A DNA stretch of 64,000 nucleotides from Candidatus Buchananbacteria bacterium (GCA_903888345.1 CAISTG010000034.1:6823-70822), one strand, 5' to 3'. Shown: positions 11,743 through 42,186, counted from the stretch's first letter. Translations and numbers: made by a program. Notes: a model not told the origin generated them from the letters alone.

Positions 11743-11761
11743 TATATTCTCTTTTCATAAT

Positions 11762-12049: not shown

Positions 12050-12079
12050 ATCAGTAACTTAATTTATTGTTATTATTTA

Positions 12080-12151: not shown

Positions 12152-12221
12152 ATTACCGCCAATTCGTAAATAGTATGGGTAAATACTAACATAAAACTAA
12201 CAAAAAGGCAAGTAGCTGAAT

Positions 12222-23747: not shown

Positions 23748-23874
23748 GGTAACTGATTATGACTAATACCCTAATCATACTTCAATTCGAGTTTTTAGTA
23801 AAATTATGATAATTTATTTTATCTAAATTTAGATAATTTTAATCTAACTAAAAATGTTACAGTGGATAAGTATC

Positions 23875-23903
23875 TTGACAAAATTTGATATATATGATAT
23901 AAT
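23875..23903 (+). promoter_or_regulatory. Perfect-consensus sigma70 promoter (TTGACA-17-TATAAT)
   Basis: ttgaca aaatttgatatatatga tataat. An upstream DnaA-box-like AGTGGATAA (rc TTATCCACT) ends 5 nt 5' of the -35. Confidence 0.65.
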
Positions 23904-24013
23904 TATAATTATCGAAAGAGTACCTTCCCAAGCACTTCGACCAGACAGTTTCTGGCTAGAAGCAAATCAACTATCACCTGGCAGCAAAAATGCCAGACCA
24001 CAGGGAGAAAGAA

Positions 24014-24511
24014 ATGAAGCAGAACAACGAACTCCGCCATGCCCTGACCATCGTGACCGTCATCATGACTGGTTTGCTGTTTATTGGGAAGTTCTTCCCG
24101 ATCAACCAGCACCCGGAACTCCAATGGCTGCAACACGATATCACGCTGTTTGGCTGGATGCTGAGCCCAATCGTCCTGATGCTGTTCTCGGCCTGGAGCT
24201 TCCAGTTCCTGACCGAGAGCTGGAGCGTGGTTTTGCGATACGGTGCCAAGAGCTTCCAGCTGTCCCCACCTTGGTGGCTTGGCCTGATCGCGGGACTAGT
24301 CATAATTGTGCTGACGCTGGTCAACGCAGCTCAGCTAGCCTTGCGAACAATCAACCTTGATCCGGTATCTCAGCAAACCGGGGGGGTTGTTCCGATTTTG
24401 GCAGTTGATGCCCTACTCATCGTCGGGCTCTCACTTGGTTGGTCGCTGTTTAAGACCAATGCGGAAATTGCCAACTTCCTCCATCCCGAAAACCCGCCCT
24501 TCAATATCTGA
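24014..24511 (+). CDS. GC-rich 4-TM membrane protein of unknown function
   Basis: 165 aa from the ATG with SD GGGAGA; an alternative ATG at 23990 gives 173 aa. About 58% GC versus about 38% in flanking genes. It has its own promoter and terminator. Confidence 0.55.
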   Translation: MKQNNELRHALTIVTVIMTGLLFIGKFFPINQHPELQWLQHDITLFGWMLSPIVLMLFSAWSFQFLTESWSVVLRYGAKSFQLSPPWWLGLIAGLVIIVLTLVNAAQLALRTINLDPVSQQTGGVVPILAVDALLIVGLSLGWSLFKTNAEIANFLHPENPPFNI

Positions 24512-24592: not shown

Positions 24593-24964
24593 TTACTTTT
24601 TCTCTAAGCGCGTATTAACCAACTTCACCACCTCATCTAATTTCCAGTTAGACTTAATCAGATATTCAAAAACTCCTCGCTCTAATGCTTCGGCCGTTTT
24701 ATCCGCCTCCGATAAGTTAGTTAAAATAATCACGGGCACTTTTTCCCCGAGCGGGTCTTGTCGCAATAGCTTCAACATCGTCAACCCATCCATGATGGGC
24801 ATCACAATATCTAACAGAATTAAATCTGGTAGAAACTTTTTAAAAACTGTTAAACCCTCTTGACCATTTTTGGCTACCTTAACATTAAACCCTCTTTTAA
24901 TAAACTTGGCCGATAGGACGCCCCTTAATGATTTCTCATCTTCTACAATTAAAATTTTTTTCAT
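24593..24964 (-). CDS. Stand-alone response-regulator receiver domain (CheY-like)
   Basis: 123 aa; acidic pocket ILIVEDE, phospho-acceptor region DLILLDIVMP, conserved K near the end. Confidence 0.85.
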   Translation of the reverse strand: MKKILIVEDEKSLRGVLSAKFIKRGFNVKVAKNGQEGLTVFKKFLPDLILLDIVMPIMDGLTMLKLLRQDPLGEKVPVIILTNLSEADKTAEALERGVFEYLIKSNWKLDEVVKLVNTRLEKK

Positions 24965-25023
24965 ATCAATTTAAGTCAAATAATCTTATTACTAATCAAA
25001 TACTACCAAACCTTAAAACGCAA

Positions 25024-25470
25024 CTAGTCCTTAGAGGCGTCATTTTTCCGATTATGCAGCACTCCCTTCAAGTCAGAAATAATCTTCTCTAAACGAAAAT
25101 CTGATTTAGTATAATACTTTTCCACACCCAATCGAAGATAACCAGCAACCTTATCGGGCGAAGCCGTATTAGAAACAACAAAGATTGGAATTTTTTTCCA
25201 CTTTGACCCATCCTCCTTCATCTTAATTACCAAATCCAAACCATTTTCTTTACCTAAGAGATAGTGATCAAGCCAAATCGCATCAATCTTCACCCCTTCA
25301 GTCAAATACTGCAAGGCGGCATTAACTGATCGGGCTGAGACAGTACTAAATCCATTCTTTTCCAATTTTAATTTAATCGCCTCAGCCAAAGGACGCTCAT
25401 CCTCGATAATTAAAATATTATGATTGTTTGTCGCCAATTTAATTGTGGCTGCTGACTGTTTCATATACAA
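25024..25470 (-). CDS. Stand-alone response-regulator receiver domain
   Basis: 148 aa; ILIIEDERPLAE...IDAIWLDHYL receiver pattern with no output domain. Confidence 0.8.
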   Translation of the reverse strand: MYMKQSAATIKLATNNHNILIIEDERPLAEAIKLKLEKNGFSTVSARSVNAALQYLTEGVKIDAIWLDHYLLGKENGLDLVIKMKEDGSKWKKIPIFVVSNTASPDKVAGYLRLGVEKYYTKSDFRLEKIISDLKGVLHNRKNDASKD

Positions 25471-25491
25471 TTTAAAATTAATTAAAGCTAC

Positions 25492-27822
25492 TTATTTCGC
25501 CTTACCTTTAGCTTCCATCCCAGCTAATGGTAACAAAATATAAAATTTACTACCTTTGTTTTCATGCGACTCGAACCAAGCCTTACCCTTAACCTCATCC
25601 ATAATTTCTTTGACGATATATAAACCTAAGCCGGTACCCTCAGTATCCATACTTTTAACATTATCAGCGCGAAATAATTTTTGAAAAATCTTCTCTTGTT
25701 GACACTTAGGAATACCATAACCAGTATCTTCAACTGAAAATAAGATGCCTTTTTTATCCCAAGTCATCGAGAGCTTAATTTTACCTTTCTCGGGCGTATA
25801 CTTAACAGCATTAGATAAGTAATTCTGAAAGATCATACGCATTAATTTTGGATCAACATTAACTTGCGGCAAATCATCGGCATAAGTGGCGGTAAAAGAT
25901 AACTTTTTTTCATTAATACCGACCAATTGCTCCTTGACCACCTCTTCTGAGAGTAACTTCAAATCGGTTGGTTGCGGTTCAATAACAAAAGTTCCCAATT
26001 CTAAACGCGAGACATTCAATAAGGTATTAACTAATTCAACCATGCGTTGATTACCGCGATAAATCTCTTTAATGTAATCCTTTTGTTCAGCCGTCAATTT
26101 TCCCGCATCACCATCTAATAGCATTTCCGCGTACCAGTTAATAGCCGAGAGTGGCGTGCGTAATTGATGTGAGGCCAAAGAAACGAATTCTGTTTTCGCT
26201 TTATCGATTTGTCTTTCCTTGGTGATATCCATACTGATAACGGAAACCCCAATAACCTTACCGGCGGCGTTTTTGATGGGCGAGGCAGAAATCGAAACTT
26301 CAACTAAACTGCCATCTTTCTTTTTTCGAACAGTCGCAAAATGTTCAACTGGGTGCCCTCGACCAATCATCACTGAAATTCCTTCGATCTCGGAATATTT
26401 TTCGGGAGGAACAATAATCTTAATTGATTTACCAATAACTTCTGCGGCAGTATAACCATAAAGATTAACCGCTCCATTATTCCAGCCAGTTATTATACCA
26501 CTAAGATCCTTACTAATAATCGGTTCCTCAGCATCACGAACAATCGCTGCCACCTGCTCAGCCTTAACCTTTTCTTCTTCGACATCTTCTAGAATATTTA
26601 AAATCGCCCCTTTTTGATTAATAGCATCCTGTTGCCTCGCTAGTAACTCTTTCGTCTGCTCCTGCACTTTTTGATCGATCTCAGCCTTAGCTTTTTTAAT
26701 GGCGGTCACCATTAAATTAAATGAATTAGCTAAATCACCAATTTCATCCTTGGCTTTAAAGTCAATCTTAAAGTTAAAGTCACCATTTTTTACCTTATTA
26801 GTAAAATGTGACAAAACACTAAGTGGCTTAGTAATCCTGCCGGCTAATATATTGCCCATCACTAACAGCAGCAGGACAATAATTAGACAAGCCACCACAA
26901 TAAAAATAATTAAATTAAACCGATAGGAAAATATCTCCGAAACATCTGCCTTAGTAATTAAACACCAACCAGTTTCCGGAATATAGGCGTGGGTACCAAC
27001 AACTTGAACGCCACGGTAGTCTGTTGCTTGAAGAATTCGTGAATGCTTTTCAATTTTGGCTAACCCACTATAACCATTGGTTTTAACGTAGGCCATTTCT
27101 GCCGGATCAAAACAATTAATGGAATTTTGTGTCTCAACTTTTTGTTTTAAAATAACTTGACCAACCAAAAATATCGACGGTGTAATAAAAAATCTATCAC
27201 TATTAATTAGAAAATTTTCTTCGGTCTTACCGAGTCCATTTTCGTTAAAAACCATTGCATAAAAATCATTAGAGTAATAACGCAAAACTGACACACCAAG
27301 AAAAGTACCGTCGCTATCGAGGATGGGAGCTGAAATAGCATAAGCAAATCCCTTAACCTGTGTGGAAACATAAATACTCTTAAAATACACTCCACTGGTG
27401 GCGTTAACGAAATAATCATCCCGTGACTTGTCCAGACCAACCTCCGACTCAATGGAGGAGGCGACAATTTTTCCCGTCTTATCTATGACCAAAGTCGAAT
27501 GCAAACCGGGATCAGCCAGTAGGGTTCGAGTCAAACGCTTATCAACTTTATCCTTAATAACTCGGTACTGATTGGAAGTGGTTGGTTCTTTTAAAAAATC
27601 AAGATAAACTGAAGCCGAAGCCAAAATAACGGCAGCTATTTCTTTTTGCTGAATATATGTTCTGATGTGCTCCGCCCTTGCCCGATTACTCGAGATCAGA
27701 TAAGCATTTATATCACCCTTAACCAAATTATTAGCATAAATTTCAAAACCGACACCCACTAAAAGTATGCCAATAACAAAAATAGTAAAAAAACTTAAAT
27801 TGATTTTATTTCTAATTTTCAT
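25492..27822 (-). CDS. Sensor histidine kinase: TM - periplasmic Cache-like domain - TM - HAMP - PAS - HisKA - HATPase_c
   Basis: 776 aa. H-box SLASHQLRTPLSAI; N/G boxes NYLSNAVKYT, DTGYGIP, GTGLGL; PAS region IISKDLSGIITGWN. Confidence 0.85.
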   Translation of the reverse strand: MKIRNKINLSFFTIFVIGILLVGVGFEIYANNLVKGDINAYLISSNRARAEHIRTYIQQKEIAAVILASASVYLDFLKEPTTSNQYRVIKDKVDKRLTRTLLADPGLHSTLVIDKTGKIVASSIESEVGLDKSRDDYFVNATSGVYFKSIYVSTQVKGFAYAISAPILDSDGTFLGVSVLRYYSNDFYAMVFNENGLGKTEENFLINSDRFFITPSIFLVGQVILKQKVETQNSINCFDPAEMAYVKTNGYSGLAKIEKHSRILQATDYRGVQVVGTHAYIPETGWCLITKADVSEIFSYRFNLIIFIVVACLIIVLLLLVMGNILAGRITKPLSVLSHFTNKVKNGDFNFKIDFKAKDEIGDLANSFNLMVTAIKKAKAEIDQKVQEQTKELLARQQDAINQKGAILNILEDVEEEKVKAEQVAAIVRDAEEPIISKDLSGIITGWNNGAVNLYGYTAAEVIGKSIKIIVPPEKYSEIEGISVMIGRGHPVEHFATVRKKKDGSLVEVSISASPIKNAAGKVIGVSVISMDITKERQIDKAKTEFVSLASHQLRTPLSAINWYAEMLLDGDAGKLTAEQKDYIKEIYRGNQRMVELVNTLLNVSRLELGTFVIEPQPTDLKLLSEEVVKEQLVGINEKKLSFTATYADDLPQVNVDPKLMRMIFQNYLSNAVKYTPEKGKIKLSMTWDKKGILFSVEDTGYGIPKCQQEKIFQKLFRADNVKSMDTEGTGLGLYIVKEIMDEVKGKAWFESHENKGSKFYILLPLAGMEAKGKAK

Positions 27823-27827
27823 TTTAT

Positions 27828-29102
27828 TTATTTAGACTTTATATCACCAGTATTTTTTTTCAGGGCGGCAATCTCTTGTTTGAGACGAATCATCTCAAGT
27901 TCCCGTCCCACCATCAATTTATTCAACTTTTCTGAATCGATTAAATTTTTCTTTAAACTATTTTCTGATAATTCCAATTTCTTGGTCTTTTCTTTAACTT
28001 TTTTATCTAAATTTTTATACAAATCATCCAATTTTCCCGCCATATCATTAAATGATCTAGCCAAAACGGCAGTTTCATCGGTAGCCTTAAGTTCCGCCTC
28101 ACTTAACTTAATATTAAACTTACCGCCAGCAATTTCTTGAGTAATCTTGCTCAGTCGAGTAATCCTGGTGGTGATCCTACTAACAAATAAAAAAACGATA
28201 ATAATTGTTAAGATAATCGCGGTGACGATCGCCAGAATAAGCGTCAAATTCATGGTCTGTACTAAAGACAACAAGGTGCGCGCTGATTTTTCATAAACGA
28301 CAGTTACTGAACCATTAAATTTATAGCCGACAAAATTATCGCTATCACGAAAACTTCCCTGATTATTATTACCAGCTAAACCAATCGCAATTTTTTTCAA
28401 TTCTATTTCTTCATGATCGGTTGAACTACTGATGCTGGTGATTTTTTCTTCGGTATTTAAGAACATTAGGCCATGACGATCCAATAATTCAACCTTACTA
28501 GCTTGGCCTTGCTGTAAATCCCACAAATAGCCTCGCAATTCGGATAAATCGATAGTGCCGATAATATTCCCAATGACCTCACCCCGGATATTTTTGACTG
28601 GCACCGCTAAACCCAATACCGGATTATTACTAATAGCACTTAGATAGGCTGACGATAGATAGGTTGCTTTAGTTTTAACTACCCCCTGACAATAATCTCT
28701 ACTAGAAAAATCCTTACCAATAAATGGCGCTGAAGCTTGATCACCTCCTACTAAGATGCAAGTCGATCCCTTAATTTCATCTAAACCGATATTTTCAATT
28801 GTCGTAATCGTCTCATTAACGTCCGTAATTTTTTTGGTTACTTGCGCCAGAATAACTGGATCTTTTGTTTCTAAAGCCTCAATAATCAGTGGATCATTAG
28901 CCAAGCTGGTCAAATTATTTTCGGCACGATCAACATAAAAATTAACTAGCTGGGTAACCTGATCAACAGTGTTGGTGATATCAGAATTAAGATGTGCTGT
29001 AATCACGCGATTATTTTGCCAATAAATAAAAGCTCCCATTGCTAAACCGTCGATCAACAAGATCGCGACAATAATTAAAGTTAATTTAAATTTTATCGAC
29101 AT
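27828..29102 (-). CDS. Output-less sensor: TM - Cache-like periplasmic domain - TM - HAMP - coiled coil (chemoreceptor-like but no MA domain, no kinase)
   Basis: 424 aa, 5 nt upstream of the kinase gene. HAMP region ITRLSKITQEIAGGKFNIKL...FNDMAGKL. Ends in the coiled coil ...EKLNKLMVGRELEMIRLKQEIAALKK. Confidence 0.7.
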   Translation of the reverse strand: MSIKFKLTLIIVAILLIDGLAMGAFIYWQNNRVITAHLNSDITNTVDQVTQLVNFYVDRAENNLTSLANDPLIIEALETKDPVILAQVTKKITDVNETITTIENIGLDEIKGSTCILVGGDQASAPFIGKDFSSRDYCQGVVKTKATYLSSAYLSAISNNPVLGLAVPVKNIRGEVIGNIIGTIDLSELRGYLWDLQQGQASKVELLDRHGLMFLNTEEKITSISSSTDHEEIELKKIAIGLAGNNNQGSFRDSDNFVGYKFNGSVTVVYEKSARTLLSLVQTMNLTLILAIVTAIILTIIIVFLFVSRITTRITRLSKITQEIAGGKFNIKLSEAELKATDETAVLARSFNDMAGKLDDLYKNLDKKVKEKTKKLELSENSLKKNLIDSEKLNKLMVGRELEMIRLKQEIAALKKNTGDIKSK

Positions 29103-29107
29103 AGCAA

Positions 29108-30124
29108 TTATTGAGTTAGATTCCGCATAAAGCTAGCGTTAATAATATCCAAGGAATCAATTTTTTGAGTGATTACTTTGCGCTCGAATAAATAGTCGTT
29201 AATCTTACTAATAGCTCCATGAATCGAGCCAAGATTAGGACCGTAAGTAAAAATAGTTAGGTTGTCTTTCAAGCCGATTATCCGATCAGTTGCTGCTAAA
29301 GCCGCTACCTCTTCGGGATAAATATTGTGAATCTGTGCAATAATTGCATAGGCCGCCTGTGGATTGGCTATAATAAACTCCGTGGTTTTATTCCAAACGC
29401 CAACAAAAGCTTGGACATCTTCCGGCCGCGCCTCAATAAAACTACGTTTAAAAACCCAATTACCGAAATTGATCCCCGGCATCTGAGAAGAATCAAAGAT
29501 AATTTTACCCTTACCTTTGTTGGCGGCCTCAGACAAATTCGGTTGCCAGTCGACAATAGCGTCATACTTACCAGAGATAAATCCCGTAACCGCCTCTTCC
29601 GGGGTGGTGTCAATCTTAATAATATCCTCTGCCGGATTTAAATCGTTATTAATCAAAACAACATTTAAAATGTAATCCAAATATGTACCCACAGTGACTG
29701 CAACTTTTTTACCCTTGAGACTTTTGATCGTATTCAAGCCAGTTTTGGCGACAATACCATCAGCGCCAGAAGAAAGATCTGAAGTGAAAACAATATTGAG
29801 GTCTGCACCCTTAGCATTATACTGGATCAAATCAAAGGGCGGAAAGTTAACCGTATCAAGCTTGCCATCAGCTGTATCTTTTAATGATTGGTTATAATCA
29901 GTATTAGTATCAACTAGTTCAACATTGAGCCCAGCCTCCTTAAACCATCCTTTTTGATTGGCGATTTCAACCCAATATGACCCCGGCCAATAATACTTAG
30001 CCACGCGAATTACCTGGCCAGAAGTATGTGGTTGTGATTGCTGAAGGATAAACCAACCGCCAGTTGCTATTAGAGCAAGCATCAAAATAGCACCAACACC
30101 CACAATGATAAATTTATTTCTCAT
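29108..30124 (-). CDS. Membrane-anchored periplasmic substrate-binding protein (NMT1/SsuA/TauA-like)
   Basis: 338 aa; N-terminal TM anchor then a two-lobe SBP fold; 5 nt from the neighbouring gene. Confidence 0.65.
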   Translation of the reverse strand: MRNKFIIVGVGAILMLALIATGGWFILQQSQPHTSGQVIRVAKYYWPGSYWVEIANQKGWFKEAGLNVELVDTNTDYNQSLKDTADGKLDTVNFPPFDLIQYNAKGADLNIVFTSDLSSGADGIVAKTGLNTIKSLKGKKVAVTVGTYLDYILNVVLINNDLNPAEDIIKIDTTPEEAVTGFISGKYDAIVDWQPNLSEAANKGKGKIIFDSSQMPGINFGNWVFKRSFIEARPEDVQAFVGVWNKTTEFIIANPQAAYAIIAQIHNIYPEEVAALAATDRIIGLKDNLTIFTYGPNLGSIHGAISKINDYLFERKVITQKIDSLDIINASFMRNLTQ

Positions 30125-30180
30125 ATTATATATGATAAACCAGAAACGATCAGTTTAGTATAATGAATCGGCTAAACTTA

Positions 30181-31167
30181 TTACTTTTTTTCTGATTGTT
30201 TTTTTAATCTTTCAATCGTATTCTTTAAATCAATCATTTTTAGCTCCCGACCAACTAATAATTTATTTAATTTTTCTAATTCTTCTAGCCGCGCCTTTAA
30301 TTCATTTTCAATTTCCTTTCGTTTTTCAATATTTTCAATTTCCGTAACAAAATATAATGGTTTCTGGCTACTATCCCGTACCAAGCTTGTATGTAAAGAA
30401 ACCCAAATTGTCTTTCCTGCCTTAGTAATATACCTTTTTTCGACATCATAGTTGTTCATCAAACCCGACACCATATTTTTTAAAGCGCCTAAATCTCGCT
30501 TAACCTCATCTGGATAAGTAATTGCCTTAAAATCCAAATTCAATAATTCTTTAGCAGAATAACCCAGTATAGCGCAAATAGCTGGATTAACCTGAATCCA
30601 CTTTCCCGTCGGCGAAACCAATGCCATGCCCAAGGATGAACTATCAAATGCATTCTTAAACTTCTCTTCGCTTTCCTTTAAGCGGTTGGAAACACGCTTC
30701 TCTTCGGTAATATCATGAATAATCCCTACTAAAATTTTATCGCCTTGATCATTTTTATAGACGTTTTTTTTAGTAATAATGGTGTGAGTTTGCCCCTTAG
30801 CATCTGTAAAACACTCTTCATTAATATTATTTTTACCACTTTTTAAAACCTCTTCGTCTTTCGCCCAAAAAACTTCCGCCTCCTTTTTCGGAAAAAAGTC
30901 GAAATCAGATTTGCCAATCAACTCTTCGCGACTGTGACCCTTAAATCGACAAAAGGCATCATTTAACAAAATCCAATGATGTTTACTATTCTTAACGAAG
31001 ACTGGATCACTAATCGCATTAAAAATATCATAAAGAATCTCATCTCTAATAAAAGCTGGATCAATCGACTTAATTGGCTTATTTTTTTTCAAACCCAAAA
31101 TAACTGATTTTATTGCATGGGCAGGATTATGTGATCTGGACTTAGTAACGACCGACTTGTTGACCAT
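30181..31167 (-). CDS. Cytoplasmic tandem-PAS protein ending in the same coiled-coil motif as 27828..29102
   Basis: 328 aa; two PAS-like regions; C-terminus ...EKLNKLLVGRELKMIDLKNTIERLKK. Confidence 0.65.
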   Translation of the reverse strand: MVNKSVVTKSRSHNPAHAIKSVILGLKKNKPIKSIDPAFIRDEILYDIFNAISDPVFVKNSKHHWILLNDAFCRFKGHSREELIGKSDFDFFPKKEAEVFWAKDEEVLKSGKNNINEECFTDAKGQTHTIITKKNVYKNDQGDKILVGIIHDITEEKRVSNRLKESEEKFKNAFDSSSLGMALVSPTGKWIQVNPAICAILGYSAKELLNLDFKAITYPDEVKRDLGALKNMVSGLMNNYDVEKRYITKAGKTIWVSLHTSLVRDSSQKPLYFVTEIENIEKRKEIENELKARLEELEKLNKLLVGRELKMIDLKNTIERLKKQSEKK

Positions 31168-31193
31168 ATTTAATTATTAAATTTACAAAAAAA

Positions 31194-31658
31194 TTAACGA
31201 ACAACACTAATTGTAGAACTATTTTCGGCACGCGGCGCGCAGAGTGTAACACGATTAGTGGTAGCGTTTTTATAAATTTGGTAAGCCGTGCCATTAGTAC
31301 TGGTGGTCGTAGGATCAATTGGCATTGATTCTAAATATTTGGCTGTGGTTGAAACTAAATAATAGCCAACATCCGTTAAGCCACTACAAGATCCGCCGGT
31401 CTTACAAATCTCCTGAGCCGCAACACCACAGGCAGTACCATTAATAATCGTCGGCGGCAAGGAACCATTATTGTCGATCGCGTACTGATAAACAGCATTC
31501 AGAATCGAATTAAGATCAGAGCGACGATCAATATTACGAGCATCACCAAATTGTTTAGTGGGATTTAAAGCCATAACAGCAATACCAGCCAAAATAGCAA
31601 TAATAGCAATCACTAGCAATAACTCTACTAAAGTAAAGCCTTGATTTTTAGATTTCAT
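31194..31658 (-). CDS. Type IV pilin / pseudopilin
   Basis: MKSKNQ G|FTLVELLLVIAIIAILAGIAV class-III signal peptide with E+5. Confidence 0.75.
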   Translation of the reverse strand: MKSKNQGFTLVELLLVIAIIAILAGIAVMALNPTKQFGDARNIDRRSDLNSILNAVYQYAIDNNGSLPPTIINGTACGVAAQEICKTGGSCSGLTDVGYYLVSTTAKYLESMPIDPTTTSTNGTAYQIYKNATTNRVTLCAPRAENSSTISVVR

Positions 31659-31735
31659 GTTTTTGAATTAGTTTCAAGCTACAATTTTTAGCCTTTACTA
31701 TTTTATTATAACATACTTGAGTGCGGCCAGCCAAA

Positions 31736-32148
31736 TTATGGTAGCTCTTGCCAAGTAGAACTAATGGTCGGATTAACCGCGGAAACAGAAACCGTTACTC
31801 GTCGAACAACGCCACTAAAAGTACTACTCGCCGTAACGGTTTTGGGTAAGATGCCAGTAACGGCGTAATCACAACTACCTCCATTAATACTCAGACTACC
31901 CGATCCTGTATAACTGGTATTTTCTCGAATCTGCTCCAGTGCGGTCTCAACGCAAGTATTAACTCCGGCTTTTGCTTTATTGGAAGATTGATAAGAAATA
32001 GCGCTTTTAGAACCGCCAGTGCCCAAAAATAATAAAGCTATCGCTACGGAAGCTGCAATAGCTCCGACGATAATAACACTAATTAGCAAGATAAAACCCT
32101 TAGCGCAAGGTAGCCGAACCGCTAAAGTTTTGGGTGTAATTATACTCA
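31736..32148 (-). CDS. Minor pilin-like protein lacking Glu+5 (GspK/PilX-like); start trimmed to the internal ATG
   Basis: MSIITPKTLAVRLPCAKG|FILLISVIIVGAIAASV. The ORF-track start at 32242 would overlap the upstream pilin gene by 142 nt; start 32148 overlaps it by 49 nt. Confidence 0.4.
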
Positions 32149-32606
32149 TTGGTAGTAGACGAAGTATTAAGTTTACTAAGAGTGAATTGAATGCGAATGG
32201 AACCATTGGCAAAGTTAGAAAATGTCGTATTAGTGATAGCAACGTGACTATCAGTCAAATTAATTGGACTAGCTGTTCCCTCTTTAATTCTTAGGGTTCC
32301 GCTGGCTACATCAAAGACCGTGGGCGAATTAACTCCGGTGGGCACAGTAATAGTCAATGAGGTTGAAGTCGCACCACTGATCGGTGTAGTAATAGCGGTA
32401 GCATTCCTAATGATTTGTGTCATTTTTGTTAAAACCAAAGTACCTTGCTGTTCGACTTCCGCCACGGACTGCGCCTTGACTCGAACCGATAAAGCTAAAG
32501 AAAAAAACTGTGACAGCGCCAATAAAATAATGGCAGCGACAGCTACATAGATCAAAAGTTCCACCAGCGTAAATCCCGATTGTTGATTTTTATTAATTAT
32601 CTTCAT
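32100..32606 (-). CDS. Type IV pilin / pseudopilin
   Basis: MKIINKNQQSG|FTLVELLIYVAVAAIILLAL prepilin leader. Confidence 0.75.
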   Translation of the reverse strand: MKIINKNQQSGFTLVELLIYVAVAAIILLALSQFFSLALSVRVKAQSVAEVEQQGTLVLTKMTQIIRNATAITTPISGATSTSLTITVPTGVNSPTVFDVASGTLRIKEGTASPINLTDSHVAITNTTFSNFANGSIRIQFTLSKLNTSSTTNEYNYTQNFSGSATLR

Positions 32607-32609
32607 AAA

Positions 32610-34391
32610 TTAATTACGCCACCAAGCAAATGAATAGGGACTATTAATAGATTGCGGCAAACTAAGTTCAATTGCAGCGCCATCAGAATTAGTCCAAGTA
32701 AAAGTCGGCGTAGCATTCATGACTAAGCGCTTACAAAACAAATCGCTCGCATTATCAGAAGTACAAAACATCAATTGATCTTTACTTAAGGGATTTGTGG
32801 TAATTTGGTAATGTTTTTGCGGATTAGCAAAAACTGGAGCCGGTACAAAAACAGTCGGATTAGAACCATTAGTTGGTGCCCAAGTGTTACCAGTTGGATT
32901 ATATTGACGGTAATTAATGCCGGTAGTCCCACTATCGTTATAAACAACGATCGCCCTGGTGGTAGCTCCAGAAATTAGCCAGCCAGTCGCCACTAATTCC
33001 GACCCAGCGACCGGAATTTGCGCCGAGGTATCCGTATTAGCTGAATTCGTCCAAGCCGAACCGTTCCAATAACCAACTTGTAGATCGCTTTGGTTAGTAC
33101 CAATCGAGGCAAAGATCATTTCATCACTATTCGGATTGGCAGACAAATCGAGATTGACCGAATCATCGGCAAAAGTAGCTGGAGTCGACGTAGCCCCCCA
33201 AGTACAGGTCGCAGTTCCGCCAGTACACGCGCGATAACGGACACCATTAATATTAGCGGCAACAGTAGTACCCCAAATCATCATCAAGTCACCCGACACC
33301 GATTCATATTCTAGGTCAAAATCATCCACGTCTTGAGCTGCCGTCACAAAATCAAGATTGGCATCAGAAACCGCTGATGGCTCATTACCCCAAGAAGAGC
33401 CGCTCCAAATCATAGCCGATAAACCAGCATTAGCATCCGCCCACTGAGCCGCAATTAAATTTTGACCAGCCCGTCGATCCCAAGCCATTTTAATCCACTG
33501 AATAACGCCAGTCGTTCGCAGAACGCTATAATTAGTATTAACTGACCAGTTAGCCGAACCGCAGCCAGTATTACCGGCCTTGGTACGATAACCAAGCTGG
33601 GAACTGCTGCCACCGACATTATTACTAAATAAAACCAGGGCATCACCAGTGGCCGTTTCATAAGCGATATCAAAACGACGAGTTGTGCCAGTGCCACCGA
33701 CAGTAGTTGTCCATTCTTGATGCCAAGAACCATCATAACACAAAACATTCAAGACCCCGGCAGCTGTTACGAATCCGGCAATGGCCTCCTGATTAAGTGG
33801 AGAGGTGCGAACAACAAAGGTATTTCCACTAGCATTAGCTGTAATCGCCGCTTCCGTACCAAAATTATTTAAAGTTGTATTATAAGCGCGGTATTTCGTG
33901 CTGGTAGTGCCGTCACCATAAAGCAGGAGGCCACCTAGGGCCGCAATTGTTCGCTGCCAATTTGTTAGCTGTGTAGTCAAAGAAAAAGTCGAGGTTCCTA
34001 GTCCGGTATTATAACTGACGGTACTAGTAATAATTTTTGTATAGGAGCCAGAGTCAGCAACATCTAAATGGCGATTAAAGATCCCATTATTATCGGAAGT
34101 TCCCGATAAAGCCCAAACGCCTGCCGCGGTTAAACCGTAGGTTCCAGCCGTCAGGCTACTATAAGAAGTATCTCGTAGACTCCGAGCTGCTTCTAAACCC
34201 TCTTCGGCTAATAACATCGCCCGAGAATTGGCACCAGCGACCTGAACACTCTGCACGGCATAAGCTAACGCTCCCACCAAAACTGCGGCAATCAACATGA
34301 ATATCCCCAACGCTAAAACAGCCTCAACCAAAGAGAAGCCAGAAAGATTGTTGCTATTTTTATCGGGGCTAGACACAAACTGCTTCATCAA
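32610..34391 (-). CDS. Large prepilin-type protein (593 aa; candidate tip/adhesin minor pilin)
   Basis: N-terminal SG|FSLVEAVLALGIFMLIAAVLV methylation motif followed by about 550 aa of Thr/Ser/Gly/Asn-rich beta-rich sequence. Confidence 0.7.
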   Translation of the reverse strand: MMKQFVSSPDKNSNNLSGFSLVEAVLALGIFMLIAAVLVGALAYAVQSVQVAGANSRAMLLAEEGLEAARSLRDTSYSSLTAGTYGLTAAGVWALSGTSDNNGIFNRHLDVADSGSYTKIITSTVSYNTGLGTSTFSLTTQLTNWQRTIAALGGLLLYGDGTTSTKYRAYNTTLNNFGTEAAITANASGNTFVVRTSPLNQEAIAGFVTAAGVLNVLCYDGSWHQEWTTTVGGTGTTRRFDIAYETATGDALVLFSNNVGGSSSQLGYRTKAGNTGCGSANWSVNTNYSVLRTTGVIQWIKMAWDRRAGQNLIAAQWADANAGLSAMIWSGSSWGNEPSAVSDANLDFVTAAQDVDDFDLEYESVSGDLMMIWGTTVAANINGVRYRACTGGTATCTWGATSTPATFADDSVNLDLSANPNSDEMIFASIGTNQSDLQVGYWNGSAWTNSANTDTSAQIPVAGSELVATGWLISGATTRAIVVYNDSGTTGINYRQYNPTGNTWAPTNGSNPTVFVPAPVFANPQKHYQITTNPLSKDQLMFCTSDNASDLFCKRLVMNATPTFTWTNSDGAAIELSLPQSINSPYSFAWWRN

Positions 34392-34420
34392 TCAATTAAT
34401 ATTTATTCAGATTGTTTAGT

Positions 34421-34846
34421 TTAGTAATCAACCAAACCCTTAGCATTGACACTTATGATCTTACGATCACCTGAATCTGAACTCAAGGTAATGGAAGTCG
34501 AGGCTACCGGTTCTCCAGTAAATTTTGAGAAGTTAATATCAACAACAGTCGAAGTAACGCTAGCCGGCAGACTGTAGGGCTCATCATAGTTACTGTTGCG
34601 TGAACCAAAACTAGCACCGACATAAACAGTAATACTAGAGGTAGAAAAATAGGTACCCCAATTATTATCTTGCTCCATATTAACGGCTAACAATTGCGCT
34701 CGTCGTAGTGACCGCACTCCCGCCTCGGTAGCTAAACCGAATTCATTATTTGTTTGGTAAGAAAAATATACCGGTGTCGCCAAACCGATCAAGATGGCCA
34801 TAATCGCCACAGATAGCACCATTTCTACTAAAGTAAAACCACGCAT
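34421..34846 (-). CDS. Type IV pilin / pseudopilin
   Basis: MRG|FTLVEMVLSVAIMAILIGLATPVY. Confidence 0.75.
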   Translation of the reverse strand: MRGFTLVEMVLSVAIMAILIGLATPVYFSYQTNNEFGLATEAGVRSLRRAQLLAVNMEQDNNWGTYFSTSSITVYVGASFGSRNSNYDEPYSLPASVTSTVVDINFSKFTGEPVASTSITLSSDSGDRKIISVNAKGLVDY

Positions 34847-34863
34847 TGCAAATCATTTAATTA

Positions 34864-35964
34864 TTAAAGGCTACCGACAAGACTATAAATCGGCAAGATA
34901 ACAGCAATCGCCACCGCCAACACAACCAAACCAACCATTAATAATAAAAACGGCTCCAGAATTACTGAGATGTTTTTAGATGTCATCTCCATTTTTACTT
35001 CATAAATAGCGCCAACCTTGACTAAGGTATCAGCTAAATTGCCGGATTGTTCGCCAGCAATGATTAATTGTTTTACTGTCGACGGTATTAGGATGTTGGC
35101 TTTTTTCATCGACTCGAAACTACGTCGTAATGATTTACCCTCTTCAATATCTGCCGATAGTCTACGATAAAACCTTTTATAGGGAGCATAATTAACCGAT
35201 TCGACTAATGCATCAAGCGCTTCAACAATTGGCAGACCAGCATTGAGCAAAGTACCGAAAATAAACCCAAAACGCGCGACTTCTGCTTGTCGCACCAACC
35301 GCCCTGAGCCAGGCAAATATAGTAATAAATTCTGACCAATAAATTTAGTGAAACGAAAAAAGAAGAAAAAATAAATCAGGGCCACTAACGCCAAAAATAC
35401 ACCGGGCACAACAATCAAACCATAAGCAGTGACAAAATTACCAACATTAATCATGATACGAGTAACTAGAGGTAATTCAACGTGCAATGAAGAAAAAACT
35501 TTAGCGAACTTAGGAATAATAAAAACGGTTACGCCCACTCCAACAACGCTAGCCACTGTTAAAACTACTAGTGGATACATCATCGCTGATTTTATGTTAG
35601 ATTGAAAGCTGCGATTTTTTTGTTGTTGCAGGGCGACCACCTTTAGATTATCTATCAAGCGACCAGAACGCTCGCCCAGGTTAATTAAGGCTAACGCCTG
35701 ATTATTAACCAAGCCAGTACCAGCAAAAGCTTGATATAAGGACGAACCACTTTCAATTTCTGCCACCAAATAATCAATAAACTTAATCATACGTCGTCGC
35801 ACCGTTTCTTCGCGCACAGCTTTAATAGCGGACAAAACATCCATGCCGGCAGTAAGCAACATGAGAAGATTTTCAATAAAATTTTCCCGGTCTTCGGTAT
35901 AACCAAAGCCGGGTAAACGAACTTTTTTAGTATTAGATTTCTTACTGTTAGTTTTACCAGCCAT
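34864..35964 (-). CDS. pilC: Type IV pilus / T2SS platform protein (GspF/PilC family)
   Basis: 366 aa; two T2SSF repeats, 3 TM helices. Confidence 0.85.
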   Translation of the reverse strand: MAGKTNSKKSNTKKVRLPGFGYTEDRENFIENLLMLLTAGMDVLSAIKAVREETVRRRMIKFIDYLVAEIESGSSLYQAFAGTGLVNNQALALINLGERSGRLIDNLKVVALQQQKNRSFQSNIKSAMMYPLVVLTVASVVGVGVTVFIIPKFAKVFSSLHVELPLVTRIMINVGNFVTAYGLIVVPGVFLALVALIYFFFFFRFTKFIGQNLLLYLPGSGRLVRQAEVARFGFIFGTLLNAGLPIVEALDALVESVNYAPYKRFYRRLSADIEEGKSLRRSFESMKKANILIPSTVKQLIIAGEQSGNLADTLVKVGAIYEVKMEMTSKNISVILEPFLLLMVGLVVLAVAIAVILPIYSLVGSL

Positions 35965-35968
35965 AAAA

Positions 35969-37627
35969 TTACTTTTTGGGACTAAGTATGATTGGCGTGG
36001 CGACTCTAGTCACCTCCTCAATGGTAGTTGTTCCGGTCAACACTTTGGCAATACCATCTTCAAACATCGAGATACTACCCTGTTTTTGGGCCAACTGCCA
36101 AATCTGTAACGACGAAGGATGGGTCAAAATTAATTCTTGTAACTCCGGTGTAATAGAAATGATTTCAAATAAAGCAACACGCCCCGTATAACCAGTACCA
36201 TGACAAATCGGACAGCCCTTACCCTGATATAACGTCAAATCACCAGACTTGAAAAAGCCCCTGACTTGTGGATATTTAGCTACTAACTGTTCAGTCTTGA
36301 CCTTGTAACTAACACGGCAATTCTCGCAAATTTTTCGTGTCAGACGCTGGGCCATAATCAACTGTAAAGTCGAGGCTAACAAAAATGGTTCGGCACCCAT
36401 ATCCAATAAACGCGGAATACCGGTGGCGGCATCATTAGAGTGAAAAGTGGATAACAATAAATGACCGGTCAAAGCGGCGTTAATAGCAATATCGGTAGTT
36501 TCGGGGTCGCGTATTTCACCAACCATAATAATATCAGGGTCCTGACGAACTATCGAACGTAAACCCTTAGCAAAAGTTAAATTGGTGGCTGTATTTACTT
36601 GAATTTGATTAACGCCAGAGATTTTATACTCAACTGGATCTTCAATAGTAGTAATATTGACGTCGCGGCTATTAATTTTCTTAAGAATCGCATAAAGCGT
36701 AGTGCTTTTGCCGGAACCGGTCGGCCCAACCGTTAAAATCATGCCAAATGGCTTTTCCGAAGCGGCTTCAATAACTTTTTGATCACGCAAAGACAAGCCT
36801 AAATCACTTAAACCATAACCACGAACATAGTGTGATAACAAACGAATAACGATTTTCTCGCCGTCTAAAATCGGCACAATCGAAACGCGCATATCCGCCG
36901 CAATACCTTCACGCTCATAAAACATTGATCCGTCTTGGGCAGCATAATGTTCATCAGTACGCAAGCGACTTTTTACTTTAATACGGTTAACGATACCCTC
37001 ATAAAATTCTTTGGGCAAACGTCCCGCCTCGGCTAAAATGCCATCAATACGGAATCGCACCACCACCTCATAAGGCTCGGGCTCAAAGTGAATATCCGAA
37101 GCACGGTAAGTAATCGCGTCAGAAAAAATTTCATCAACAATTTCAGGAGCAATCCGATGTTTTTCTTTAATAATTTGAGAAAATCTCGTCGCTAATTCCT
37201 GACGATAGGAAACCAAAACAGTATTAATGTCTTCAGTTAGCGAGTAGGCAATTTTAACATTTTTACCATACGCCTTAATTAAAACTTCTTTCAATTCTTT
37301 ATTGTCCGGCTGATCTGTAGTAATTACAAGACTTTTCGGAGTTTTCTTAAATAATACAATGCGATATTTAATGGCTAAGTCTTCAGTCACCAATTTAACC
37401 TGCTCCGCGTCAGGCATATTCGAATTCAAGTCGGCGTAAGGTACGCCAAAAAATTCCGCCATGGCCTGGCCGAATACATCTTTATCTAATAAGCCCTCGT
37501 CAAATAAATAGTCAATGATTTCAATATGCCGCCTAGCTGTTTCCGCTTCCGCGGTGAGCCAGTCAGCTTCTTCCAGGTACCCTCCTTCGACCAGGATTTT
37601 TTTGAGTTGTTGTTGATTTAATTCCAT
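35969..37627 (-). CDS. pilB: Type IV pilus assembly ATPase (GspE/PilB family)
   Basis: 552 aa; N-terminal GSPII_E_N domain, Walker A GPTGSGKSTT, Asp box, His box, and tetracysteine CENC...CPIC. Confidence 0.9.
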   Translation of the reverse strand: MELNQQQLKKILVEGGYLEEADWLTAEAETARRHIEIIDYLFDEGLLDKDVFGQAMAEFFGVPYADLNSNMPDAEQVKLVTEDLAIKYRIVLFKKTPKSLVITTDQPDNKELKEVLIKAYGKNVKIAYSLTEDINTVLVSYRQELATRFSQIIKEKHRIAPEIVDEIFSDAITYRASDIHFEPEPYEVVVRFRIDGILAEAGRLPKEFYEGIVNRIKVKSRLRTDEHYAAQDGSMFYEREGIAADMRVSIVPILDGEKIVIRLLSHYVRGYGLSDLGLSLRDQKVIEAASEKPFGMILTVGPTGSGKSTTLYAILKKINSRDVNITTIEDPVEYKISGVNQIQVNTATNLTFAKGLRSIVRQDPDIIMVGEIRDPETTDIAINAALTGHLLLSTFHSNDAATGIPRLLDMGAEPFLLASTLQLIMAQRLTRKICENCRVSYKVKTEQLVAKYPQVRGFFKSGDLTLYQGKGCPICHGTGYTGRVALFEIISITPELQELILTHPSSLQIWQLAQKQGSISMFEDGIAKVLTGTTTIEEVTRVATPIILSPKK

Positions 37628-37764
37628 CTTAACCGCATGAGTTAGTTTACCCTGTAGAATAAGCTATCGGATATGCTTTAAATTATTGCGCTAGTAGTGC
37701 CAATAATTAGAAAAACAATCGCATTCGAGCCACTATTCTACTGGATTAAGACAAAAGGATAAAT

Positions 37765-38136
37765 TTAAACGAGCGTTTTGACTTTATTAACGATGTCTTG
37801 GATTTGAGTGTTTGATTTGACAATGTAGTCAACCGCCCCCAAACCCTTAGCGCGCTTTATGTCCTCCTCCTGTGATAAATTTGATGTTACGATAACTTTA
37901 ATCTTTATTTTCTTTTCTTTGATTTTTTCTAAAACACCAAAGCCGTCAAGCTTAGGCATAATCAAGTCCAATAAAAGAAGATCAAATGATGATTTTTCTA
38001 GGGCCGCAATTGCTTCCTCGCCATCAAAAACCAGTGTCGGATCAAAGCCTGATTTCTGGAATTTCAAACCCATGGCCTTGGCCATAGACTTTTCGTCTTC
38101 GGCAATAAGGATTTTTGGCTCACTTTTACTTGGCAT
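37765..38136 (-). CDS. Stand-alone response-regulator receiver domain
   Basis: 123 aa; ILIAEDEKSMAK...DLLLLDLIMPKLDG receiver pattern. Confidence 0.85.
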   Translation of the reverse strand: MPSKSEPKILIAEDEKSMAKAMGLKFQKSGFDPTLVFDGEEAIAALEKSSFDLLLLDLIMPKLDGFGVLEKIKEKKIKIKVIVTSNLSQEEDIKRAKGLGAVDYIVKSNTQIQDIVNKVKTLV

Positions 38137-39119: not shown

Positions 39120-40457
39120 CTAGTATTGTAAAACAGTCTTAAATTTCTTTGTTTCTTTGGTCTTACCAAAAACAATCTTCTCGATATTATAAGTACCGTA
39201 TTTCGGCGCTTCAATAAAACCCGCCATCGCTGCCTCGGCTAACCAACCAGAATGCAACCAATCACAAAGCCATTCACCAGTATATTTGGGATCATCCTGA
39301 TCAATTCCCGCCCCAATTAATTGTAACCACTTCTGATTAAATTTTTCTTGACTGCCAACCGGTGGCGCCATAATAATCGGTAAACCTAAAGCACAATAAA
39401 AACATAATTCCGATGGCTTAGTCCAAAGAATATCTGATTCACGCAGCGCCTTATTAAAAGTTTTGAAATATTGATGCTTATTAGATTCAAAAATTATATT
39501 AATACCCTTACCCAACTCTCGAGATAATTTTAATTTCTTTAGTTCCTCTTTAAAATATTCAGCTACTTGCTGATTAGTACCCGCCACCAAATTTAAGCGC
39601 ATCTTACCATCCAAAATATACTTTTTAATACTGAAGGCAACTTCGACCCCCAATTCACGTTGAGCGCCAGCACCGCCAACGGCAAAAGTAATGGTTAAAG
39701 GCCGTGATTTATGTAATTTAAAATTAGACCCCAAATGAGAATGAATTGAGGGTTTGAATTGATTAATATATACGCGTCCCGGATCCAAATTAATTAGACG
39801 CTTCCCCAGATCCGCTTTCAAAATTTTTAAATTAACGCCAACATTTTCCTGAGGCAAGGGGAAACCAGTCAAAATAATCCGATCTTCCGTCACGCCATAC
39901 AACTTTAGGCGATCAGCCACCCGCCGATTAGAAGCAAAGTAAATAATCCGGCTATCTTGAGGCTTAGGCGGTACCCAGGCACGTGAAATATCCGCATCAC
40001 ACAAAATACAATAAATTTCTCCAGGATAATCGAAATACTCTGCCATCATCGCCGTCACAAAAAACGTGGTAATAAATGGGAGTGGCGTTTTCGCTAATTT
40101 AGAAATCAGATGCTTGCCCCAATCACCTTCCTCAAAAAATTTATAAATCTGTTTTAATTGCAAATTAGAAGTCGATAAATCACGCTTCGGATAAAAATTC
40201 GGAATGGCCTGCAATTTATCGTATAAACTAAAAACTCGATCACCAATAAGTGGTACCATTTTAAACCGCGAGACAAATTCATAAAAGCCACGCGAGTTCT
40301 CCCAAATAAATTTGTCTTTTTCGGGAATGCCAACATAAGTATTAGCGGTAATAATACCCTTGTAGGCAATATTCTTTAAGGGGTAGGCAGCGCGTTGATG
40401 ACCATAGCCCATATCAACTGTCACCACCCACGCTTTTTGTGGAAGTTTAGAAGTCAT
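39120..40457 (-). CDS. GT-B fold glycosyltransferase (MGDG-synthase/UgtP-like, GT28-like)
   Basis: 445 aa; N-terminal VDMGYGHQRAAYPL resembles the G-x-GH motif of MGDG synthase / YpfP. Motif similarity only. Confidence 0.45.
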   Translation of the reverse strand: MTSKLPQKAWVVTVDMGYGHQRAAYPLKNIAYKGIITANTYVGIPEKDKFIWENSRGFYEFVSRFKMVPLIGDRVFSLYDKLQAIPNFYPKRDLSTSNLQLKQIYKFFEEGDWGKHLISKLAKTPLPFITTFFVTAMMAEYFDYPGEIYCILCDADISRAWVPPKPQDSRIIYFASNRRVADRLKLYGVTEDRIILTGFPLPQENVGVNLKILKADLGKRLINLDPGRVYINQFKPSIHSHLGSNFKLHKSRPLTITFAVGGAGAQRELGVEVAFSIKKYILDGKMRLNLVAGTNQQVAEYFKEELKKLKLSRELGKGINIIFESNKHQYFKTFNKALRESDILWTKPSELCFYCALGLPIIMAPPVGSQEKFNQKWLQLIGAGIDQDDPKYTGEWLCDWLHSGWLAEAAMAGFIEAPKYGTYNIEKIVFGKTKETKKFKTVLQY

Positions 40458-41606: not shown

Positions 41607-41629
41607 TTCAACCAACAGGGAGAAAAACC

Positions 41630-42160: not shown

Positions 42161-42186
42161 TCAGCCACCAGCAAGAAAGGCAAGCA

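Follow-up and report, generated by a model that had tools for sequence, protein, structure and literature searches.

A conserved gene cluster of Patescibacteria that joins type IV pilus genes to a histidine kinase, stand-alone receivers and kinase-less sensors sharing a C-terminal helix motif

The gene cluster

Positions 24593-38136 of a 64,000-nucleotide stretch of Candidatus Buchananbacteria DNA (GCA_903888345.1, CAISTG010000034.1:6823-70822; the whole stretch is referred to as the window, and coordinates are counted from its first letter) hold 14 tightly packed, co-directional minus-strand genes, as defined by a listing of open reading frames (ORFs) and by Pfam scans. Read from 38136 to 24593, these genes specify a stand-alone receiver (REC1), the extension ATPase PilB, the platform protein PilC, five pilin-like proteins, a PAS-PAS protein, a solute-binding protein, a dCache-HAMP protein, a sensor histidine kinase and two more receivers (REC2 and REC3). 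Gaps between genes are 4 nucleotides (nt) for PilB and PilC, 5 nt for the binding protein and the Cache-HAMP protein, 5 nt again for the latter and the kinase, and 3-137 nt for the remainder. The original prediction for this DNA, which was made from the sequence alone, had counted thirteen genes, one too few; the domains that it named are all found by Pfam where it had placed them. The features are as follows (lengths in amino acids, aa).

37765..38136, minus strand: REC1, stand-alone receiver, 123 aa, directly 5' of pilB (Pfam Response_reg, 80.9 bits)
35969..37627, minus strand: PilB-type extension ATPase, 552 aa, with an MshEN-like N-domain (Pfam T2SSE, 386 bits; MshEN, 36.8 bits)
34864..35964, minus strand: PilC/GspF platform protein, 366 aa (Pfam T2SSF, 150 bits, two stretches)
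34421..34846, minus strand: minor pilin, 141 aa (N_methyl, 25 bits)
32610..34391, minus strand: minor pilin, 593 aa, with a lectin-like beta-propeller, candidate tip adhesin (weak N_methyl, 16.7 bits)
32100..32606, minus strand: minor pilin, 168 aa (N_methyl, 32 bits; position conserved in related loci)
31736..32149, minus strand (start uncertain, the ORF reaches 32242): PilX/GspK-like minor pilin lacking Glu5 (by homology; no Pfam match)
31194..31658, minus strand: major-type pilin, 154 aa (N_methyl, 37 bits)
30181..31167, minus strand: cytoplasmic PAS-PAS sensor, 328 aa, without catalytic output (PAS at residues 49-158 and 169-280)
30184..30282, minus strand: C-terminal helix motif of the PAS-PAS protein, ELEKLNKLLVGRELKMIDLKNTIERLKKQSEKK (read from the sequence; matches the motif family)
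29108..30124, minus strand: membrane-anchored NMT1/SsuA-type solute-binding protein, 338 aa (Pfam NMT1, 72.7 bits)
27828..29102, minus strand: dCache_1-HAMP membrane sensor, 424 aa, ending in a helix, without output (dCache_1, 68.8 bits; HAMP, 31.7 bits)
27855..27938, minus strand: C-terminal helix motif of the Cache-HAMP protein, DSEKLNKLMVGRELEMIRLKQEIAALKK (family conservation)
25492..27822, minus strand: sensor histidine kinase, dCache_1-HAMP-PAS-HisKA-HATPase_c, 776 aa (Pfam)
26569..26616, minus strand: kinase coil motif QKGAILNILEDVEEEK between HAMP and PAS, proposed docking site for the sensor motif (comparison of related kinases)
25024..25470, minus strand: REC2, stand-alone receiver, 148 aa from a TTG start, cREC_REC-like (Response_reg, 46.8 bits; cREC_REC, 33.5 bits)
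24593..24964, minus strand: REC3, stand-alone receiver, 123 aa (Pfam Response_reg, 86 bits)

The cluster is a discrete unit in the sense that housekeeping genes flank it, a SpoU methylase upstream and MgsA, NUDIX and QueH downstream. Scanning it for promoters and terminators returns fewer matches than shuffled sequence does, and only two promoter-like sites (38207-38180 and 31734-31705). The second of these (10/12, with an extended -10) lies upstream of the gene for the 154-aa major-type pilin and is possibly an internal promoter, in a scan that is not significant overall.

Sensors that end in a shared helix

Two of the sensors stop where a kinase or other output domain might begin. The Cache-HAMP protein has 26 full-length orthologs (400-440 aa, 39-62% identity) with a common stop position, and its AlphaFold2 (AF2) model (predicted local distance difference test score, pLDDT, 85) consists of a first transmembrane helix and stalk, the dCache domain, a second transmembrane helix joined to HAMP, and then an uninterrupted helix, residues 343-421. 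Merely 65 residues follow HAMP, and Pfam does not detect the MCPsignal hairpin there; the absence of MCPsignal and the single straight helix of the model led us to reject an assignment of this protein as a methyl-accepting chemotaxis protein (MCP). Of the PAS-PAS protein, only the first ~48 residues lie outside the two PAS domains and the terminal helix, too few to hide a further domain. Ortholog lengths and model for the one, and domain coverage for the other, thus mark both as entire proteins rather than fragments or carriers of a cryptic output. That ligand sensing is split over several polypeptides, as originally proposed, is strongly supported.

What the original prediction overlooked, while recognizing these sensors correctly, is that they share a C-terminal motif, and that the kinase carries a complementary one. 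The Cache-HAMP protein ends in ...SEKLNKLMVGRELEMIRLKQEIAALKK and the PAS-PAS protein in ...LEKLNKLLVGRELKMIDLKNTIERLKK; the shared helix is a candidate mechanism for bringing split sensing together. From 87 distinct examples a consensus of ELEKxNKLMVGRELKMIELKKEIxxLK emerges; in 85 of them the distance between motif start and C-terminus is 17-41 residues, and in 81 Asn occupies position N(-3), a conservation that is independent of the regular expression used for detection. Within the Cache-HAMP family the motif is among the most conserved stretches (M397, R400, E401, M404, L407 and K408 are invariant), and indels immediately upstream of it have lengths that are multiples of 7 aa, which reads as the signature of a signaling coiled coil. 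Positions 6 and 9 of the motif swap charge, K/E in 65 cases and E/K or E/R in 12 (p = 3e-11, uncorrected for phylogeny), as an i/i+3 salt bridge on a helix would have them do. The corresponding subtypes, GRELKMxELK (65) and GRELEMxKLK (12), rarely mix, and the window has one of each alongside a single kinase. No pattern of covariation between the E6/K9 or K6/E9 subtype and variants of the kinase motif is seen on judging by eye.

The motif is not confined to this cluster. Among 1.84 billion cluster representatives, a profile of it matches 19,479 at E <= 1e-3 and 5,891 at E <= 1e-10; the strict pattern is present in 129 of the best 150 representatives and lies within 70 residues of the C-terminus in 127 of those 129. 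Pfam finds PAS domains in 88 of 90 top matches (REC, dCache, HAMP, GAF, CBS or PocR occur in a few), and the 25 commonest Pfam families of these 90 include no kinase, cyclase, phosphodiesterase or MCP output. Sources outside Patescibacteria include an ANME-2 archaeon, Desulfuromonadaceae, Bacteroidetes, Altiarchaeales and Rhodocyclaceae. The motif itself matches nothing in Pfam or NCBIfam and no structure in the Protein Data Bank (PDB; best E = 0.14), and a literature search by motif strings and by concept, not exhaustive in its coverage, found no description of it; it is apparently undescribed. One candidate identity was discarded: VGRELKM superficially resembles the VSHELRT of a dimerization and histidine phosphotransfer (DHp) domain, and comparison with a DHp profile by hhalign gives a probability of 1% (E = 0.052).

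An orthologous cluster (L001, described below) contributes two observations on the variety of inputs. At 11260-12237 it encodes a 325-aa sensor of unknown type with two transmembrane segments, which is unrelated to the other two sensors and ends in the same motif, and a variable slot at 8540-8953 is occupied by a hemerythrin (137 aa). The tail can accordingly be thought of as a common output placed on interchangeable inputs, and the variable slots suggest cassette-like exchange of those inputs. In some assemblies (L088, 2895-6216, and L169, 3380-4401) a short ORF of its own encodes the motif, immediately following ORFs with PAS domains. A frameshift or long-read indel error that splits one PAS-motif gene is the apparent cause, and database counts of 'mini' motif proteins are therefore inflated.

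The solute-binding protein, which carries an N-terminal membrane helix, clears the Pfam NMT1 cut-off (20.5) and falls below that of NCBIfam SsuA_fam (138 bits; cut-off, 163.5). ABC permease and ATPase genes are found neither in the cluster nor beside binding-protein orthologs in three related loci (L001, L003 and L005). The binding-protein gene is directly upstream of 10 of 13 genes for Cache-HAMP-motif proteins, and by analogy with LuxP-LuxQ and TorT-TorS its product most likely reports ligand to the dCache domain. In Falkowbacteria (L003, 8998-18485) the pair of binding protein and Cache-HAMP-motif protein is followed by a 2271-aa Fib_succ_major surface protein and has no kinase or pilus gene within 10 kb, an exception to the rule that such sensors have a kinase partner.

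The kinase coil and sensor-kinase pairing

The kinase (HisKA, 65.9 bits; HATPase_c, 89 bits; H-box 'SHQLRTPL') resembles WalK, PnpS and PhoR in NCBIfam, with all three scores below cut-off. Its own distinctive element, (D/N)Q(Q/R)KA(I/V)LN(I/V)LEDVEEEK, is located roughly 20-25 residues after the HAMP/'KVxEQT' segment and is referred to here as LNILED. It recurs in 38 of 59 kinases encoded by related loci. A set of 81 non-redundant loci was recovered through the Cache-HAMP family.

Motif-bearing sensors and kinases tend to be neighbors: a kinase gene on the same strand starts within 2.5 kb downstream of 54 of the 87 sensor genes, and within 100 bp of 29. LNILED is present in 33 of 44 kinases that have a motif-bearing sensor upstream, versus 5 of 27 that do not (odds ratio 13; Fisher p = 5e-6, not corrected for phylogeny). 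It is found in none of 89 sensors, and the sensor motif in none of the kinases checked. The pairing takes its most reduced form in one locus (L171, 6001-7711), where an 85-aa protein that is essentially motif only overlaps a 338-aa kinase by 4 nt and a stand-alone receiver follows; the whole N-terminus of that kinase consists of three tandem 21-residue repeats 'KAILNILEDFSAEKxRLxxTQ' (KAILNILEDFSAEK...), after which come the DHp domain and the catalytic and ATP-binding (CA) domain. An ANME-2 archaeon (GCA_013572355.1; L087, 1-6340) has a PAS-motif protein, cut by the contig end, then 5 nt, then a dCache-HAMP-GAF hybrid kinase-REC with a variant coil 'LAIMNIAVDIEE' after HAMP; REC, REC-MetOD1 and a PilB3/FlaI-type ATPase follow. 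These two are among four contexts, all in non-Patescibacteria and outside the main set of loci, that repeat the order of sensor and kinase. Because of this co-occurrence of motifs and adjacency of genes, we infer that the LNILED coil of the kinase is the docking site of the sensor C-terminal helix.

A helix of this kind might have other work to do. It could be a coil for homo-oligomerization, or bind a receiver, PilB or a membrane array, in which case the sensors would work alongside the kinase and not through it. The two hydrophobic faces of the motif are, on our reading, compatible with any helical bundle; 22 of the 87 motif-bearing sensors have no nearby kinase although the contig leaves room for one, the Falkowbacteria pair is isolated beside its large surface protein, and fusion in cis of the sensor motif to an LNILED kinase is not found among the best 150 representatives. 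Against this are set the strong adjacency to kinases, the enrichment of LNILED specifically in adjacent ones, the L171 kinase whose N-terminus offers only LNILED repeats to a minimal motif protein overlapping its start, and the repetition of the pattern in the four non-Patescibacteria contexts. On balance we regard a non-docking helix as unlikely.

Receivers beside pilB

REC1, REC2 and REC3 (123-148 aa) have Response_reg matches only, to which REC2 adds cREC_REC; Pfam thus agrees with the original prediction that all three regulators are receiver-only. On alignment to CheY each retains the acidic pocket, D57, T/S87, K109 and the aromatic switch residue Y106, which predicts that all three are phosphorylatable. 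None of them has the layout of an NtrC-type regulator with sigma-54 AAA+ and helix-turn-helix domains, and Pfam returns no match to Hpt, CheW or MCPsignal in any cluster protein.

Position is informative as well. In related loci REC2 is conserved downstream of the kinase and the place of REC3 is also conserved, while a REC gene on the same strand is directly upstream of PilB in 18 of 22 loci, at a distance of 1-137 nt in 17 of the 18 (249 nt in L032). Retention of a REC beside pilB across divergent lineages is the pattern expected for interacting proteins. From gene neighborhood only, then, direct phosphorylation control of PilB activity is what this arrangement points to.

The receivers could instead control transcription through an unlinked DNA-binding partner, a sigma/anti-sigma factor or a phosphorelay, so that linkage to pilus genes would signify co-regulation. 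They do resemble receiver domains of the OmpR/PhoB family and the kinase is WalK/PhoR-like; several receivers per kinase would suit a relay or a sink; and 58 of the 81 motif-sensor/kinase/REC loci have no PilB within 10 kb, so that receivers there would have other targets. The window also encodes a TrmB-family regulator (42715-43470) and HU (40530-40817), both outside the cluster, contrary to the original statement that no DNA-binding regulator lies in the window. Genes for DNA-binding response regulators, Hpt proteins and sigma/anti-sigma factors are, however, absent from the cluster and from L001 and L005 (the two orthologous loci with Pfam annotation of called genes), and a receiver fixed at so short a distance from pilB across divergent lineages speaks for interacting proteins. 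We therefore give transcriptional control a low probability.

The likely filament

The ATPase has a Walker A sequence GPTGSGKST and a CxxC...CxxC tetracysteine motif. Its best NCBIfam match is type_IV_pilB at 479 bits, below the equivalog cut-off of 675, so that it counts as a divergent member of the family. PilC matches GspF of NCBIfam below cut-off (198 bits) and has the two T2SSF repeats of polytopic platform proteins.

The cluster pilins have the features of class III prepilins (G|F-x-x-x-E and a hydrophobic N-terminal helix): GFTLVE-type N-termini are visible, and N_methyl matches are above cut-off in three and weak in a fourth, the 593-aa protein. The PilX/GspK-like ORF is identified through its counterpart at the same position in L001, L005 and other related loci, by BLASTP and by sequence similarity to L001 8112-8504; minor pilins of the GspK/PilX type lack Glu5. 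The four genes after PilC make up a minor-pilin set. An ortholog of its 141-aa member occupies the corresponding place in L001, L005 and many other loci; the 154-aa major-type pilin gene is absent from the L001 and L005 versions of the cluster.

The 593-aa pilin belongs to a family of about 580-600 aa that is conserved in Patescibacteria. Its AF2 model (pLDDT 88; predicted template modeling score, pTM, 0.78) has an N-terminal helix (21-71), a pilin sheet and an all-beta region (154-590), and the best Foldseek matches in the PDB are seven-bladed propeller lectins, 6gxr (BP39L), 5c9o and 6fhy (PLL and PHL), with E about 1e-9 and TMt 0.60-0.66. On the strength of the model this protein is likely a tip adhesin.

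PilT, PilD and PilMNO are not found among the scanned ORFs of the 64-kb window and may lie elsewhere in the genome, so that membership in the type IV filament class rests on core components. The original prediction had noted no CheA, PilT or PilMNOPQ, and none is present among the window ORFs scanned (57.4-63.6 kb is outside the scan); absence of the PilQ secretin fits the general assumption about the Patescibacteria envelope. In the T4P-2 system of Saccharibacteria, the beta-propeller minor pilin PilX2 is required for host binding (PMC12206443). Because the propeller-lectin fold of the 593-aa pilin parallels PilX2, the most likely product of the cluster is an adhesive pilus for host recognition.

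A competence (ComG-like) or type II secretion-like pseudopilus for uptake of DNA or nutrients, with nutrient sensing through the SsuA-like binding protein, can also be envisaged. Patescibacteria are thought to depend on imported building blocks, which would suit such a role, as would the lack of PilT among the scanned ORFs. PilB, PilC and the 593-aa protein do match ComGA (233 bits), ComGB (132 bits), ComGE and GspE/GspF, in every case below threshold, whereas the best NCBIfam match of the ATPase is to PilB of type IV-A. The propeller-lectin fold of the large minor pilin is typical of adhesins, the locus of the similar host-binding T4P-2/PilX2 system also lacks PilT, and the cluster has neither a ComEA nor a ComEC gene. 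An uptake pseudopilus is correspondingly improbable, and the adhesive pilus is the reading retained below.

Conservation across genomes

The source of the DNA is an ultra-small bacterium of the Patescibacteria, and this group (Paceibacterota, Falkowbacteria, Taylorbacteria, Buchananbacteria, Uhrbacteria and Shapirobacteria) is almost the only one in which homologues of its Cache-HAMP protein and large pilin are found. Several loci with genes for motif-bearing sensors and kinases are labeled Saccharibacteria, among them L037 and L063, in which REC1-PilB is present as well. In L001, whose Cache-HAMP ortholog is 57% identical, the same block lies between FtsH and RecG; in L005, from Taylorbacteria (48%), it lies between an amidase and DUF642. 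The two share the order REC, PilB, PilC, four minor pilins, binding protein, Cache-HAMP protein, kinase, REC, REC, and the block is seen in many more loci. Recurrence in unrelated genomic contexts places the arrangement beyond chance. Synteny thus confirms that pilus and signaling genes are linked elsewhere; the architecture, which had been put forward as undescribed, is not unique to this genome and is a widespread module of Patescibacteria.

Linkage to PilB is common without being general: PilB is within 10 kb of motif-bearing sensors in 23 of the 81 loci, and in 13 of the 37 that are at least 18 kb long. In a control of 80 generic PilB loci from metagenomes, a histidine kinase or REC is linked to PilB in 14, which include the closest relatives of the window PilB and no canonical PilB-PilT-PilC locus. 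(The control PilBs are, among the matches listed, mostly generic, at 35-45% identity, and constitute a control set, not a census of orthologs.)

That the output-less sensors are frameshifted kinase fragments, or that pilus and signaling genes are juxtaposed by accident, has in its favor only the unusual look of the sensors and the short, fragment-like motif ORFs of L088 and L169, and is refuted by the common length and stop position of the 26 Cache-HAMP orthologs, the thousands of relatives that terminate at the motif, the completeness of the structure model and the conservation of the block with differing flanking genes, which together make it extremely improbable.

A proposed signaling route

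Confidence in the parts of the cluster and in their linkage is high. Beyond that, we think it fairly probable that the cluster represents a conserved module of Patescibacteria (the candidate phyla radiation, CPR) whose two-component system is dedicated to the control of a host-adhesive type IV pilus, by way of a full signaling route. The binding protein would report ligand to the dCache-HAMP sensor in the manner of LuxP and LuxQ. The dCache-HAMP and PAS-PAS sensors would then dock, by their C-terminal helices, on the LNILED coiled-coil segment that follows HAMP in the kinase, adding inputs to what the kinase senses through its own dCache and PAS domains. The kinase would phosphorylate the stand-alone receivers, and phosphorylated REC1 would act post-translationally on PilB/PilC, starting or stopping pilus assembly, with REC2 and REC3 serving as sink, competitor or second output. 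Overall, a pilus with an adhesin at its tip would be deployed under the control of a signal.

Several observations weigh against this scheme. The contacts of motif with LNILED and of REC with PilB are both deduced wholly from gene neighborhood and motif co-occurrence, and the Fisher tests make no correction for shared ancestry. Since the loci were selected through the motif, its presence in them is there by construction. Eleven of the 44 adjacent kinases lack LNILED, and the solitary sensors (the Falkowbacteria pair among them) and missing cis fusions already described count here as well, as do the loci without nearby PilB, in which the receivers may have other targets, and the absence of PilT, PilD and PilMNO from the scanned ORFs.

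Other genes of the window

Between the cluster and MgsA, on the plus strand, 23854-24511 contains overlapping ORFs for a hydrophobic 173-aa protein and a 168-aa protein without Pfam match; the product may be a small membrane protein whose gene is convergent with the cluster. Just upstream of the flank of the cluster is a gene for a 445-aa DUF6938 protein (39120-40457, minus strand), and three consecutive ORFs of 156-176 aa without Pfam match occupy 41079-42657 (plus strand).

Farther away, an orphan histidine kinase (2742-4943, minus strand; HisKA_7TM-GAF-HisKA-HATPase_c, 733 aa) lacks LNILED and has no adjacent receiver that was recognized. A 348-aa protein (5041-6087, minus strand) has a CER1-like C-terminal domain (Pfam E = 1e-23), which is odd in this genome because the CER1 family is best known from wax and alkane synthesis in plants. 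A FadL/Toluene_X-type outer-membrane beta-barrel (6670-7848, minus strand; 392 aa, Pfam E = 8.6e-29) is encoded in a stretch of raised G+C content (0.476 versus about 0.40). Patescibacteria are usually thought to have no outer membrane, which makes this gene unexpected; it could reflect horizontal transfer or mis-assembly.

Significance

Patescibacteria are obligate episymbionts, and their type IV pili mediate host recognition and attachment. How extension and retraction are regulated is among the open questions of a 2025 study of Saccharibacteria pili (PMC12206443). The cluster provides a concrete, conserved candidate for such regulation, with a kinase, three receivers and identifiable ligand-sensing inputs.

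As pilus regulation, the system is a variation on two-component systems, single-domain regulators and binding-protein co-sensors. Greater novelty attaches to the C-terminal helix motif, which is widespread and unannotated, together with its candidate partner motif in kinases; a motif family that comes with a partner in neighboring kinases is one that can be tested. A broader proposal, which is tentative and may well prove wrong, is that helix and LNILED coil form an unrecognized cross-domain docking code, used by bacteria and by archaea such as ANME-2 to plug PAS, dCache-HAMP, GAF, REC-PAS and other sensors into kinases in trans, and that it is a main regulator of Patescibacteria adhesive pili, by way of receivers acting directly on PilB. 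Were this so, tens of thousands of output-less 'PAS domain S-box proteins' would be detachable kinase inputs, 'orphan' PAS and Cache proteins, a very large class, would be assigned a function, and there would be a natural modular route for adding inputs to kinases, which is relevant to the design of synthetic signaling.

Comparison with known systems

PilS-PilR likewise assigns a membrane histidine kinase and a response regulator to type IV pili. PilR is a DNA-binding activator of the sigma-54 type that switches on transcription of pilA, whereas all three regulators of the cluster are without an output domain; since none has a DNA-binding domain, the cluster is not a PilS-PilR system. The PATAN/CheY-type regulators PixG, PixE and PilG of Synechocystis bind PilB1, and are a precedent for response-regulator-type proteins that act directly on the extension ATPase. 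Their inputs come from Che-like or photoreceptor pathways, and they contain PATAN domains; the receivers of the cluster, in contrast, are bare and lie beside a HisKA kinase.

In the Pil-Chp system (PilJ-ChpA-PilG/PilH) of Pseudomonas aeruginosa, CheY-like receivers control pilus extension and the behavior of PilB (PMC11656802). The likeness, already drawn in the original prediction, is one of function: more than one single-domain receiver, possibly with antagonistic or sink roles, takes the place of DNA binding in CheY-like control of the pilus motor. It does not extend to membership. Pil-Chp relies on a CheA-type kinase with Hpt and CheW domains and on the MCP PilJ, while the cluster has a HisKA/HATPase kinase, separate kinase-less sensors, and no CheA, CheW or MCPsignal, and for lack of CheA, CheW and MCP is not a Che-type pathway.

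On the input side, LuxP-LuxQ and TorT-TorS also place the gene for a periplasmic-type solute-binding protein next to that for a membrane sensor whose extracytoplasmic domain is double-PDC/dCache-like and through which the binding protein is presumed to signal. In LuxQ and TorS the kinase is part of the sensor polypeptide itself, whereas the partner of the binding protein here stops after HAMP and one helix, and a separate kinase follows. In RetS/LadS-GacS and YycH/I-WalK, as is proposed here, a sensor without productive catalytic output modulates another signaling protein by contact. RetS contacts GacS through DHp domains, to which the cluster motif shows no relationship in profile comparison. 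The HOS domain of RpBphP1 is a two-helix output domain (PMC6899989). None of RetS/LadS-GacS, YycH/I-WalK and RpBphP1 HOS is known to use the MVGRELKM helix or the LNILED coil.

Among pili, the closest comparison is with T4P-2 of Nanosynbacter lyticus TM7x, which has its own PilB and PilC, a locus without a retraction ATPase, and a minor-pilin set (PMC12206443). The T4P-2 locus includes PilMNO, which the cluster lacks, and kinase, receiver and sensor genes are not reported with it. What the two have in common is that each is a Patescibacteria pilus with a minor pilin whose C-terminal beta-propeller is proposed to be the host-binding adhesin.

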